DNA from: Candidatus Heimdallarchaeum endolithica | GTDB lineage: Archaea; Asgardarchaeota; Heimdallarchaeia; Heimdallarchaeales; Heimdallarchaeaceae | NCBI GenBank assembly: GCA_021513715.1 | Contig: CP084167.1 | Coordinates: 2,720,001 to 2,784,000 of the forward strand | Reading direction: 5' to 3' | Length of the DNA stretch: 64,000 bases | The notes under the pieces: model-generated | Database searches by the model: none | Seen by the model: the letters and a program-made list of their open reading frames with translations, nothing else | Told to the model about the DNA's origin: nothing | Program-made: the position numbers and the translations under genes | Part shown: positions 23,659 through 40,873 of the stretch, in pieces | Layout of the letters: each line of letters opens with the position of its first letter | How positions within the stretch are numbered: position 1 is the stretch's first letter

Positions 23659-25917
23659 GTGATCTTGAAAATGTTTTGGACTGAAGATGAATTTATAAAA
23701 AACATGAGGAATGCTCTTGGTTGGGTTAAATATTCAAGGCAATTAAATCAAGAACAAATGTCAGCTGTATTACATACAAACGGGCCTTTATGGGTTCTAG
23801 CTGGTCCTGGTTCAGGAAAAACAGAACTATTAATCTGGAAACTATTTAAGCTTATTTTTGTTGATGGTGTCGATCCTCAAACTATCTTTTTAACAACATT
23901 TACAGAAAAAGCTGCAAAAAACATGTTTAATAGAATAATTACTTATTATAACAATTTGTTAAAACATGGCTTTGATTGTATTAAAAACGTTGATATTAGC
24001 AGCTTGAAGATAGGTACTCTTCATTCCTTATGTAATTCAATACTAGTTGAATATAGATATGATAATTATCACACTAAGAGGTTGATGGATGAGAATGAAT
24101 CCTCCTATTTTTTTTACAAATATGTTACCATGACAAAAAGCGGTAGTCAAGGCCCCTCAGATTACTTTTGGGAATATTTTTTCGAGAAACGACCTTATTC
24201 TAAATGGCAACGAGTAAATTACTCTAAAATATTACTCTCTAGAATTACTGAAGATTTGATTGATGTTGAAAAGCTTCAGAATTCTGATGATATTTTCATG
24301 CAAGAGTTAGCAGAATATTATATACAATACAAACAAAGTTTAAATCATAGAGATAGATGTGACTTTCCAACTGTGCAGCAGTTATTTCTTAAATTCTTAA
24401 ATGAAGAAGAAGGAGAAAAATTTATTCAAGGCGATATGGAAAGAGACCTTCCTCCAATAAAGTATGTTTTAGTTGATGAATATCAAGACACAAATCCTAT
24501 TCAAGAAGAAATATATTTTCGTATGACGGAATTGATTTCTCCTTCTGACTGTAATATAACAGTTGTTGGAGATGATGATCAAGCTATGTATAGGTTTAGA
24601 GGAGCCACCGTAGATTCGCTTATCTTCTTTGGTGAAAGGGTAAAAGAAAGATTTGGAAAAATTCCAACAAAAATTCAATTAAAAAGAAACTATCGTTCTC
24701 ATCCTGCCATAATTGATTGGTTTAATAGTTATATTGCAAATATGCCTGAAATGCAAATTAAAGGTGCTAGGGCTCCAGGAAAAGAACGTATGATTTCTGC
24801 TAAACATTTTCAAGAGAATTGGAATCCCATAGCTATTATTGAAGGATCTTCACTTACTGATACTGCAGAGAAAGTTGCTGAATTTATTCAATCAATAATT
24901 AATTTTAGGGATGAGAAAAATGAGAAGATAATTGACGATCCATCACAAATTGTTATTTTATCACAAAGTACAAGAGAAACTTCTAGAAATGTTGGATCTT
25001 TTGTTGAATCTTTAAGGAGAAGAGGAGTTCCTGTATATAATCCTAGAAATAGAAAAATCCATGAGACAACAGAAGTAAAACAATTATTAGGGGCATACAT
25101 TGAAATAATAGATAAGAACAACTCTGAACTTTCTGAAAATGATCATGTGTTAAGAATATCAACAAGAGTAAAAGACTTTATTCAAAGTTGTAGAAGAGAA
25201 TATCAAAATTTAATCACATCACAAGGAGGAATTGATAAATTATTAAACTATGTATCTCAATCTCAACTGAAAATAGAAAGTGCTCCTCCAAATAAAAAAT
25301 TTGATGCTACATTTCATAGAATCTTTTTAAGACTATTAAATTGCCCTCCTTTTTCAGAATATCTTTCAGATCCAGTTATATCTCCCAGATATGGCATAAT
25401 TTCTGCTCAAATAGAAGCATTTAATACCGTTTATTCAAATTATTTAGTGAAATCCTCTACTATAAATTCATTAAAAAGAAATTTGCTAAGGGACTTCTAT
25501 ACTGTTTTTTGTGGTCAAATCTTAAACAGTGGGCTAAATGATGTAGAAGATATAGACTATCCTATTCTTCCTGGAAGAGTTCAGATTGTGACTTATCATC
25601 AGTCAAAAGGATTGGAGTTTCCAATTGTGATTCTTTTAGGGTTAACAAAGCAGTATAGGGTTGGCATAAGTTATAAATTGGAGAGGATGTTATCAGAATA
25701 TAGAAAAAATCCATTACAATTAGAATCGGATGAATTAAGAGCTGCTCAAGATATGATCCGATTGTACTATGTAGGTCAAACGCGTGCAAAATACTGTTTA
25801 ATTTTTGCAGATAAAGAATTAAATAAATGGAAATATTCCCTTGGATTTGATGAGAAAGGAGAAAAAAGATTTTCTTTAAACTGGTTAGAGAATAATAATA
25901 TTCCAGTATACAGGTGA
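23659..25917 (+). CDS. UvrD/PcrA-like SF1 DNA helicase
   Basis: AGPGSGKT, TFTEKAA, DEYQD, VGDDDQAMYRFRGA, NYRS, HQSKGLEF and YVGQTRAK. Confidence 0.95.
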   Translation: MILKMFWTEDEFIKNMRNALGWVKYSRQLNQEQMSAVLHTNGPLWVLAGPGSGKTELLIWKLFKLIFVDGVDPQTIFLTTFTEKAAKNMFNRIITYYNNLLKHGFDCIKNVDISSLKIGTLHSLCNSILVEYRYDNYHTKRLMDENESSYFFYKYVTMTKSGSQGPSDYFWEYFFEKRPYSKWQRVNYSKILLSRITEDLIDVEKLQNSDDIFMQELAEYYIQYKQSLNHRDRCDFPTVQQLFLKFLNEEEGEKFIQGDMERDLPPIKYVLVDEYQDTNPIQEEIYFRMTELISPSDCNITVVGDDDQAMYRFRGATVDSLIFFGERVKERFGKIPTKIQLKRNYRSHPAIIDWFNSYIANMPEMQIKGARAPGKERMISAKHFQENWNPIAIIEGSSLTDTAEKVAEFIQSIINFRDEKNEKIIDDPSQIVILSQSTRETSRNVGSFVESLRRRGVPVYNPRNRKIHETTEVKQLLGAYIEIIDKNNSELSENDHVLRISTRVKDFIQSCRREYQNLITSQGGIDKLLNYVSQSQLKIESAPPNKKFDATFHRIFLRLLNCPPFSEYLSDPVISPRYGIISAQIEAFNTVYSNYLVKSSTINSLKRNLLRDFYTVFCGQILNSGLNDVEDIDYPILPGRVQIVTYHQSKGLEFPIVILLGLTKQYRVGISYKLERMLSEYRKNPLQLESDELRAAQDMIRLYYVGQTRAKYCLIFADKELNKWKYSLGFDEKGEKRFSLNWLENNNIPVYR

Positions 25918-26864
25918 AAAATATGAGTATTAGACAATTTAAGGATATTCCTCGAGAAAAATTAGAATTATCAAGGCCATTGAGAAAGTATAGTATTATT
26001 GGTGATGTGTTGTCTTATTTGTTGTGTCCTAGGCAATATGGTTATTTTAAAGTAAGAAATATTGTTCCTTCAGCTCAAGGCCAATTATTCTTTGGTGAAG
26101 TAATTCATAATGTTCTAGATAGAGTTCATCTTCATTACAGGAAAACAAATGAAAATCAGTCTAATTCATTACCTACAGAAAATGAAATAGATCAATATTT
26201 TGATATTGTGTCTAAAGCATTAAAATCCCAAGGTATAAGACCATTAAGCAAAAGTTTGGAACAAAGGGCACGAAAATTAATTAAGCAATTTGTTTTTACC
26301 TTTGGGCATACCTTATTTCCAAGGGTAAAAGATACTGAACATAAGTTACAGATCCAAACATCACTAGACAATGGTTTAGATTACATTTTACATGGTGTCG
26401 TGGATGTTTTATTCTACAATTATGAAGATGGTAATATCTCTAACGAGAAAGTGGAAATTTGGGATTATAAAGGTGGTAGAATCCCTGATGAACAATACTT
26501 AAAGAATTATGAATTTCAAATGTTGGTTTATTCATTCCTTTTTAAACAAAAAAATGGTTTTTATCCTGAAGAAAATGTACTATTTTTTATTGGCGAAATG
26601 GATAGAGAGTCTAATCTTGGATTAAGTGCAGAAGAATTACTTGACCGATGTACTGTTAAGGTAAAAATAGATGAACAAAAAATTAAACATGCAATGAAAA
26701 AATTTGAAGAAGCTGTAGAAAAAATTGAAGATGAGTATAATAGGCCATTTGATAAACAATGGTTAGCTCCAAAAGTTAAACCACCAGAGACGATGTGTGC
26801 AACGTGTGATATTCGATGGTCATGTGAAAATCCCAATGGCAAATTTGAACTTTCAGGATTATAA
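25914..26864 (+). CDS. PD-(D/E)XK nuclease of RecB/AddB/Cas4 type with a 1+3 Cys Fe-S staple
   Basis: CPRQY...HGVVD...DYKGG...QMLVY...CATC....C. Overlaps the helicase stop by 4 nt. Confidence 0.88.
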   Translation: MKNMSIRQFKDIPREKLELSRPLRKYSIIGDVLSYLLCPRQYGYFKVRNIVPSAQGQLFFGEVIHNVLDRVHLHYRKTNENQSNSLPTENEIDQYFDIVSKALKSQGIRPLSKSLEQRARKLIKQFVFTFGHTLFPRVKDTEHKLQIQTSLDNGLDYILHGVVDVLFYNYEDGNISNEKVEIWDYKGGRIPDEQYLKNYEFQMLVYSFLFKQKNGFYPEENVLFFIGEMDRESNLGLSAEELLDRCTVKVKIDEQKIKHAMKKFEEAVEKIEDEYNRPFDKQWLAPKVKPPETMCATCDIRWSCENPNGKFELSGL

Positions 26865-40206: not shown

Positions 40207-40873
40207 CCAGTCTCTTAAAGAGATGTTTGACTTTCAAAAAGCAAAAAAAATTAAAAGAGATTTAATAAAAATCAATGAAAATTTACAGATTATATATTTG
40301 TCTCTTATCATATTCAGTAGATTCAAAGCTAGGAAATTGAGTAATCACTTGTTTAACAGTTTTTCTTCAGAAAACATAGAAAATGCAATTATTTTAGTAA
40401 ATAATGAACAAGATAGAAATAAAGTAGGAAAAGAAGTTTCGCGATTACGTAATTATCTAGATAAATTAGCATTTAATGCAAGTTATGAAGGGATAAATGT
40501 GCTAAAGAAATGGCTTGCATTTTATAAATTAGCTGAAAGTATGAAATTATCCAAAAATATTTTATTATTTGCTCAGAAACAGATTCTAATAATTAAAGAA
40601 CTTCTAGAAATCTTTGAAAAACTAATAGTATTTAAAAATATTAATGATGTTACAAATAAAAAGAATTTGGAAGCAGTAATAAATAATTTATCCACGAAAA
40701 TAGATGTTTACAGCTTGGAAATTGGTAATCCTTTGCACAAGTTCTTGAAGATTTATTACCATAAAACAATTAAGGGAGAATCCGTTTCATTAGCTGATAT
40801 CACAGAATTTGCTGTCACACTATCAAAGTCTGATATAGGTGATAAAATATTTCTCCAAATTCTAGATCTTTAA
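40196..40873 (+). CDS. Helical hypothetical protein (DpdI-like by size and position)
   Basis: 225 aa, overlaps the ATPase stop by 11 nt. C-terminal GESVSLADI. Confidence 0.5.
   Translation: MPVSQSLKEMFDFQKAKKIKRDLIKINENLQIIYLSLIIFSRFKARKLSNHLFNSFSSENIENAIILVNNEQDRNKVGKEVSRLRNYLDKLAFNASYEGINVLKKWLAFYKLAESMKLSKNILLFAQKQILIIKELLEIFEKLIVFKNINDVTNKKNLEAVINNLSTKIDVYSLEIGNPLHKFLKIYYHKTIKGESVSLADITEFAVTLSKSDIGDKIFLQILDL

Follow-up and report, generated by a model that had tools for sequence, protein, structure and literature searches.

Within the 64,000-nt stretch of DNA analyzed here (the window, whose positions serve as coordinates throughout), we determined that ten genes at 23659-40873 make up a locus that appears, judging from its protein sequences, to be a new variant of BRIGADE type I, in which the core features of that type are present but not all of its features. 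BRIGADE type I was described by Bell et al. 2025 (bioRxiv 10.1101/2025.09.15.676423, PMC12458937), who said that it occurs only in halophilic archaea; the locus extends BRIGADE beyond halophiles, to Asgard-type archaea. Under the reading that we favor, and consider probable if only moderately so, a TGT-family guanine transglycosylase (TGT) would mark DNA and a block of five genes would carry out sensing and restriction, the two together forming a reduced Asgard BRIGADE type I system similar to restriction-modification (R-M). A prediction made earlier from this DNA alone (the original prediction) had proposed a Dpd-related defence locus, which is borne out, as are its DpdG- and DpdH-like genes and a putative DNA-type TGT that accompanies the operon in Asgard-type loci. 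It had also taken the system to be undescribed, a claim overturned by the match of the core to BRIGADE type I (PMC12458937). In what follows, L- and G-labels denote the loci and genomes compared, G000 being the source genome. The ten genes are as follows (aa, amino acids).

23659..25917, plus strand: UvrD/PcrA-type superfamily 1A helicase, 752 aa, accessory (PF00580, 176 bits)
25914..26864, plus strand: PD-(D/E)XK nuclease, 316 aa, candidate effector nuclease (PF12705, 61 bits; weak Cas4 matches)
27031..28194, plus strand: PUA-less TGT, 387 aa, predicted DNA guanine-to-preQ0 transglycosylase (PF01702)
28218..29102, minus strand: N4-cytosine-type DNA methyltransferase (MTase), 294 aa (PF01555, 110 bits; PADLOC MTase_II, 128 bits)
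29255..30406, minus strand: type IIS-like restriction endonuclease, 383 aa (model match to PaqCI)
30649..35415, plus strand: YprA/DUF1998 superfamily 2 helicase, 1588 aa, ARMADA/BRIGADE lineage (full-length orthology, tree)
35415..36341, plus strand: protein of P-loop NTPase fold lacking Walker motifs, 308 aa, C-terminal part helical (AlphaFold2 (AF2) model)
36338..37243, plus strand: DpdG-like tandem winged-helix protein, 301 aa, BrxA/DUF4007-like (Atlas structure match)
37240..40206, plus strand: DpdH-like AAA+/STAND ATPase, 988 aa (transitive profile match)
40196..40873, plus strand: DpdI-position protein, 225 aa, positional homologue only (position, size)

All ten genes are full length, with intact motifs and coupled junctions. 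The layout, strands, sizes and overlaps originally given hold, as the open reading frames (ORFs) are found at their coordinates. The order of the five block genes recurs in 18 haloarchaeal genomes and in several Asgard-type loci, so that the arrangement is not due to chance. The block comprises five plus-strand genes encoding proteins of 1588, 308, 301, 988 and 225 aa, with successive overlaps of 1, 4, 4 and 11 nt. Using an alignment of the haloarchaeal ATPase and a profile search of genome contigs, we found the same five-gene order in 18 haloarchaeal genomes. Within 10 kb of these 18 blocks lie a DpdJ-branch helicase (16 loci), a small PLD gene (seven), a TGT-family gene (11) and, in two more loci, QueC. 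The haloarchaeal TGT-family genes occur with DUF6884 or a fused DUF5591, several of the loci include queC/D/E, and a DNA2-like helicase is present in two.

As described by Bell et al., type I BRIGADE combines an ARMADA-like YprA without a fused nuclease, usually a second, Dpd-branch YprA with a small PLD, homologues of DpdG and DpdH/I, genes for making or inserting deazaguanine, and a nuclease encoded on its own; PD-(D/E)XK nucleases replacing the PLD have also been reported (PMC12458937). The window shares with it the ARMADA-like YprA, DpdG, DpdH/I (I by position only) and the five-gene order, and, as the PLD or PD-(D/E)XK nuclease expected nearby, it has two PD-(D/E)XK genes and no PLD. It differs in that the locus has neither a que cluster nor DUF6884 nor a TGT fused to DUF5591, in a TGT of another clade, in the extra MTase, type IIS-like nuclease and UvrD pair, and in its host, which is not a halophile and has a GC content of 31% (28.6% in the locus versus 30.8% in the genome).

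The 1588-aa helicase is the orthologue of the ARMADA-like YprA of the haloarchaeal BRIGADE-type loci and not DpdJ, as it had first been labeled. It aligns end to end with the haloarchaeal 1575-aa helicases (27–28% identity, 600–650 bits), whereas the second helicase of the same loci (~1360 aa, DpdJ-branch) gives only local alignments of at most 82 bits. Its motifs are intact (PTASGKT, DEAH, QRAGRAGR, and DUF1998/MZB at 1486–1560), the helicase core contains a CxxC-rich insertion of ~600 aa, and no C-terminal nuclease is fused, the protein ending 28 aa past MZB; CxxC motifs at 538, 550, 564, 606, 902, 919 and 1311 occupy positions common to the haloarchaeal copy. PADLOC ranks DruE (148 bits) above DpdJ (97 bits) for this helicase, and by the same ranking the 1575-aa helicase of the haloarchaeal loci is DruE-like and the 1360-aa helicase DpdJ-like. 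A FastTree phylogeny splits them in the same way and groups the window's helicase with the ARMADA-like copy at 100% local support. A tblastn search of the genome with the 1358-aa helicase and the small PLD detected no orthologue; one other MZB gene in the genome encodes a stand-alone YprA.

Direct scans with PADLOC, NCBIfam and Pfam detected no DpdH match for the ATPase and left the 308-, 301-, 225- and 383-aa proteins without any hit. By structure and transitive profile matches, the 301- and 988-aa proteins are remote relatives of DpdG and DpdH, in agreement with the G and H labels of the original prediction. The 301-aa protein has an Atlas structure match, with template modeling (TM) scores of 0.78/0.85, to a cluster in which 41% of the members carry PF28110 DpdG, and a TM score of 0.51 against DUF4007. 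The ATPase retains GETGTGKS, E291/D292 and an invariant R339, and in a quick tree it is grouped with copies from haloarchaea and other archaea; when its relatives were made into a profile, 40 of the 48 aligned members among the proteins retrieved matched NF041065 DpdH. The I label stands only in part: a gene of the same position and size is found in all block loci, but the homology is positional only: the 225-aa protein matches the haloarchaeal family profile only at its C-terminus (E 0.007) and its own profile does not match the copies beside more distant DpdH genes.

For the 308-aa protein, an alignment-based AF2 model (pLDDT 85.5, a predicted local distance difference test score) predicts a Walker-less P-loop fold that is neither a PLD nor DpdK, the identity first suggested for it. 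P-loop NTPase-type domains fill the first 50 rows of the VIA-align output, the best of them reaching Z 8.1 over residues 8–158, the fold-class match of Z 6–8 being in the middling range, and locus L095 has distinct genes for a DpdK-like PLD and for a homologue of the 308-aa protein; that fold searches with the model retrieved no PLD chain is on its own not evidence. An HxK-like motif noted originally is not upheld, since its His is not kept in 15 homologues, and the family has neither a conserved HxK nor a Walker A motif. A DHH phosphoesterase assignment hinted at by Atlas was dropped, as it came from a poor model (pLDDT 0.38) superseded by the alignment-based one. The family is found upstream of dpdG-like genes, and the protein may by inference be a BrxB-like inactive STAND; no direct match of the model to BrxB was obtained, the link being fold class and position. 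Since the layout of winged-helix protein, inactive STAND and ORC/STAND ATPase recalls BrxA, BrxB and BrxC, the block may constitute a BREX-like platform. A fold is thus assigned to a previously unannotated family, and points to a BREX-like A/B/C layout behind Dpd-related systems.

The block is rare in the window's phylum, where two of 400 genomes have it; six other Asgard-type loci (L005/L006, L008, L090, L094, L168 and L171) contain all or some of its genes. In all six a TGT lies within 3 kb of the block or its helicase, and a second YprA was not seen in the DNA available for them. A PLD gene of 430–450 aa directly follows the 225-aa gene in L005, L008 and L090; it is absent here, where an unrelated 232-aa gene is found instead. 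The Asgard-type copies branch outside the haloarchaeal clade, and BRIGADE may therefore be older and wider than published. The nearest named homologues of the locus proteins are from Heimdallarchaeaceae, consistent with the Asgard host originally thought probable and pointing to one that is probably of Heimdallarchaeia type, and ATPase and TGT relatives that are 96% identical occur in other samples.

The TGT consists of a single TGT domain without PUA. The catalytic Asp residues (D94, D129, D264) and the Zn ligands (C311/C313/H316/H334) are kept, V195-P196 matches the preQ0 pocket (PMC5699537), and His167 is found where tRNA TGTs carry Gln, the position occupied by His181 in Salmonella DpdA (PMC10164549). 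By sequence, then, this looks like a DNA-type active site, and insertion of preQ0 is predicted. The TGT scores 99 bits with the arcTGT profile TIGR00432 (cut-off 350) and 33 bits with the DpdA profile NF041059 (cut-off 200), and its best PDB match is arcTGT 1IQ8 (E 2.5e-18); it appears to represent a clade of its own, neither NF041059 DpdA nor housekeeping arcTGT. A housekeeping arcTGT of 576 aa is encoded separately in the genome (C1:2.137 Mb), and ArcS is also present. That this is a non-housekeeping TGT, as originally claimed, is supported in that it does not group with arcTGT and a TGT co-occurs with the operon in six of six other Asgard-type loci. In a tree biased towards relatives of the query, with only one canonical DpdA included, the TGTs of four Heimdall-type block loci form one clade (100% by the Shimodaira-Hasegawa-like approximate likelihood ratio test, SH-aLRT), and three TGT clades occur beside the block (Heimdall-type, L168-type and haloarchaeal). 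The family is present in only 25 of 400 genomes of the phylum.

None of dpdB, C, D, E or F was found among the ORFs of the locus, and PF14072, the DGQxR motif and PF03883 are absent from the whole genome (one contig, 92.6% complete by markers), in which a DUF6884-like gene lies 1.85 Mb away. The original statement that DpdB and DpdC are lacking thus stands for this locus and, for DpdB, for the genome. DpdC/DUF6884 genes adjoin the TGT in L008, L168, L159 and L182; because L008 and L168 are relatives, "no DpdC" is true of the locus but not of the family. An orphan canonical dpdA is encoded elsewhere in the source genome (G000:C1:895817-897118, equivalent to L169:15817-17118; NF041059, 394 bits), with a DUF6884-like gene ~3 kb off; the genome has no dpdB. 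DpdB-free action has a precedent in phage 9g DpdA, which inserts dPreQ0 when it is expressed on its own in E. coli (PMC6884629). Among deazaguanine genes, the locus contains the TGT, while QueC, QueD and ArcS are encoded only elsewhere in the genome. The genome has QueD and two QueC, the second QueC being 55% identical to that of the queC/queD cluster; it lies 24 kb off and is a possible source of preQ0. Under-represented words in the genome yielded no usable target motif, and our literature search, which covered few subscription papers, returned nothing on Asgard deazaguanine DNA systems or TGT-NurA-HerA loci.

From gene content, homologies, motifs and linkage, which are what was observed, we infer the following steps by homology and linkage. 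At a motif in host DNA, the TGT would replace a guanine by preQ0 supplied by the archaeosine pathway of the host, acting without DpdB as phage DpdA does; dPreQ0 would be the likely product because the locus has no DpdC-like gene. The 308-aa, DpdG-like, DpdH-like and 225-aa proteins would form a BrxB/BrxA/BrxC-like platform on unmarked motifs and load the YprA helicase, which would unwind the invader for cutting by a separate nuclease. The best candidate for this nuclease here would be the UvrD and PD-(D/E)XK pair, which may parallel the DNA2-like helicase-nuclease accompanying some haloarchaeal loci; sister loci would use the PLD nuclease. The MTase and the type IIS-like nuclease may add a second, methyl-based layer that travels with the TGT. 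The locus is a candidate case of DpdB-free marking of cellular DNA with deazaguanine, and as a minimal BRIGADE (one helicase, one TGT, low-salt proteins) it should be easier to express in E. coli than the haloarchaeal versions, making a first test of the class practical.

The MTase has the motif order DPFLGTG then SPPY and is 62–82% identical to MTases beside related TGTs. A model of the 383-aa protein (pLDDT 67, moderate) predicts an N-terminal PD-(D/E)XK domain (PD..EVK) followed by winged-helix recognition domains; its best match is PaqCI (Foldseek E 5.6e-6; Z 10.4, root-mean-square deviation 10.2, 237 aligned), and it matches the BpuJI binding domain at Z 7.4. This family is rare (5 of 400 genomes), and in each of the four assessable genomes that have it (G000, G081, G241, G276) a gene of the TGT family lies within ~6 kb. 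Type IIS systems with asymmetric sites use two strand-specific MTases; G241, G276 and L168 have two MTases and the Heimdall-type loci one, the second MTase of the former having no orthologue in the genome. The R-M pair and the UvrD-nuclease pair follow the TGT clade and not the operon; the R-M genes, originally called embedded, are tightly linked to that clade, and reading them as a passenger is not supported.

The 316-aa nuclease has Cas4/AddB-like cysteines at both ends and probably carries an Fe-S cluster. A search with UvrD retrieved 879 homologues at E ≤ 1e-100, some of them fused to PF12705, and the pair is a widespread accessory module in which a helicase-nuclease, a single fused protein in some homologues, is split into two. 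It adjoins the TGT in L008, with the block, and in L172, where it precedes an ATPase-NurA-HerA system, and it is missing from most loci with the block; on these grounds the proposal that it replaces DpdE/F is not supported. Its role would be either to supply the missing nuclease or to open DNA for the TGT.

Several observations weigh against the reading that the TGT marks DNA for the block. BRIGADE itself is a predicted system only (PMC12458937), the haloarchaeal loci were called BRIGADE type I from the text description in that paper and not by accession, and the window has only one YprA, no small PLD and no DNA2-like fusion. Salmonella DpdA needs DpdB (PMC10164549), and QueE is unconfirmed in the genome. 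The Heimdall-type TGT clade is nested among TGTs that mostly partner a ~1400-aa ATPase, NurA and HerA (46 of 80 metagenome loci), the window's TGT is distant from the haloarchaeal TGTs and not their orthologue, and in the congeneric genome G015 this chromosomal site is occupied by a related TGT together with an ATPase and HerA system; for these reasons the TGT marking gene looks exchangeable between restriction machines. Moreover, an MTase of one family is found in all six Asgard-type loci with enough flank, and methylation could therefore be the self mark. The TGT, MTase and type IIS-like nuclease also occur as a trio without the block, beside GmrSD in L173.

The genes could be two or three independent modules lying side by side, with the TGT marking DNA on behalf of the MTase-type IIS cassette, or else of the UvrD pair, while the block reads the methyl mark or senses invaders independently of any mark, an account that we hold to be somewhat unlikely. 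It would explain why the type IIS nuclease family is always near a TGT in the four genomes named above, why the cassette is found without the block (in L173, and beside BREX-like genes with que genes in L182/L183), why UvrD, the PD-(D/E)XK gene and the TGT precede another system in L172, and why five of the 18 haloarchaeal loci have no TGT or QueC within 10 kb. However, the three TGT clades beside the block suggest repeated selection for the pairing, the haloarchaeal loci have block and TGT but no gene of the window's MTase family within 10 kb, and L008 has TGT, DpdC and block without the type IIS gene. A further proposal, which strikes us as unlikely, is that the TGT clade is a portable DpdB-free marking module plugged into BRIGADE-like, ATPase-NurA-HerA and BREX-like machines, and that in Heimdall-type loci it replaces the second type IIS MTase to give a hybrid mark, with a methyl group on one strand of the site and a 7-deazaguanine on the other; no description of such a hybrid self mark was found in the literature searched.

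We find it quite improbable that the locus is a decaying BRIGADE-like one, which lost the PLD and second helicase in rearrangement, no longer restricts, and leaves defence to the R-M pair alone. Three sister loci do have a PLD after the 225-aa gene where the unrelated 232-aa gene stands here, and the island is flanked by insertion sequences (ISs) and replaced in the congeneric genome; but no ORF is truncated, the motifs are intact and the junctions coupled, the 96% identical ATPase and TGT occur in other samples, L168 likewise has no PLD within 10 kb, and replacement of PLD by PD-(D/E)XK was reported by Bell et al. (PMC12458937). It is very improbable, in our estimate, that the TGT does not act on DNA, being instead an arcTGT-derived enzyme of tRNA/RNA or a receptor, like Cap10, for a deazaguanylated protein. 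Its best profile and PDB matches are to arcTGT, with only 33 bits for DpdA, a spare QueC lies 24 kb away, and a TGT-fold protein that binds a modified protein is known from type IV CBASS, namely Cap10 (10.1101/2025.04.06.647259). Yet the window's TGT has no PUA and has His for Gln while a housekeeping arcTGT is encoded elsewhere, it keeps the Zn site that Cap10 lacks, no CD-NTase is present in the locus, and in more than 100 loci the family has DNA nucleases, MTases and DpdC-like genes as its neighbors.

Compared with bacterial Dpd (DpdA-K, Salmonella Montevideo), the window shares a PUA-less TGT, the three catalytic Asp and the His, remote DpdG and DpdH, and a probable 7-deazaguanine self mark; it differs in a TGT outside NF041059, in lacking DpdB, C, D, E, F and K, in a helicase not of the DpdJ branch, and in its extra inactive P-loop protein. 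BREX and BREX-related capture (BRC) systems, described by Rakesh and Krishnan 2026, have the same layout of winged-helix protein, inactive STAND and ORC/STAND ATPase, and BRC also recruits a TGT without DpdB or DpdC (PMC12839542), whereas the locus has no PglZ, PglX, BrxL or HerA/FtsK, and its 308-aa protein, whose link to BrxB is one of fold class and position only, retains a C-terminal part that is helical. ARMADA and Druantia share the YprA lineage (large Zn-rich insertion; best PADLOC match DruE), but PADLOC and Pfam scans of 20.6–52 kb detected none of the BrxHII-like helicase, PglX-like MTase, other Dru/Drm genes or fused nuclease of ARMADA, Druantia and DISARM. Type IIS R-M systems of the PaqCI kind similarly have an N-terminal nuclease with winged-helix recognition domains beside an amino-MTase; the window has one MTase only (its relatives two) and a constant TGT linkage. 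From housekeeping TgtA the TGT differs in the absence of PUA, in His167 and in its 99 bits with TIGR00432.

Related TGTs also occur in other settings. An archaeal operon found in L013-L089 (e.g., L056:4993-11050), L172 and G015:C1:2512000-2522500 encodes a NurA-like nuclease, HerA and a 1200–1400-aa ATPase without a PADLOC match, often with a short gene clustering with ArcS/TGT (probably DUF5591) and a His-type TGT; QueC or a queuosine-precursor transporter is present in some cases. This recurrent operon may represent another deazaguanine defence system, so far undescribed. In L182/L183 (G241:C13:22000-43000) and L159 (G276:C5), queC-queD-queE-like genes, a type IIS-like nuclease, two MTases, DUF6884 and TGT form a cluster directly beside BREX-like genes (BrxL, weak BrxC), possibly a deazaguanine-marked BREX variant. 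L095 (1-14435), L166 and L167 are further Dpd-like loci in which a gene of the 308-aa family precedes dpdG; L095 also encodes a TGT, DUF5591, an 1832-aa helicase, a DpdK-like PLD and a stand-alone DUF1998 gene, and L166 a DndB/DpdB-family gene.

The locus lies within a 32-kb segment (~17.3–49.2 kb), which we refer to as the island; at the same site the complete congeneric genome G015 has other DNA (52 kb), its synteny with the window ending at 17188 and picking up again at 49320. The island is bounded by inverted copies of a common IS, and the second QueC lies outside it.

17329..18367, minus strand: degenerate DDE insertion sequence, left island edge (inverted repeat with 48155-49180)
48155..49180, plus strand: intact DDE insertion sequence, right island edge (PF01609)
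2140..2970, minus strand: QueC (preQ0 synthase), the genome's second copy, at 24 kb from the TGT (PF06508, 171 bits)

Because its other genes include those for a Roc-TIR protein and an SMC-like ATPase, and because the segment is replaced in G015, the locus can be regarded as part of a variable defence island. A composite transposon is possible, but weakly so since the IS has 33 long copies genome-wide, and no tRNA gene marking an integration site was found at the island. Divergent from the UvrD gene is a gene for a 940-aa beta-propeller-Roc GTPase-TIR/SEFIR protein (20668-23490, minus strand; PADLOC bSEFIR, 142 bits). On the other side of the block are genes for a 613-aa protein (41692-43533, plus strand) whose N-terminus matches, at a score under the Pfam cut-off, the PARP-type zinc finger that is typical of DNA-break sensors in eukaryotes; for a small protein with a PD-(D/E)XK-like motif (43914-44507, minus strand); and for a 798-aa SMC-like ATPase (45707-48103, plus strand) whose best PADLOC match is LmuB. 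Outside the island, the second QueC and a divergent 319-aa gene (together at 2140-3975) adjoin an IS, neither gene being present at the syntenic G015 site, and a small Longin-domain-like protein (weak PF19036) encoded at 8035-8478 on the plus strand fits an Asgard host.

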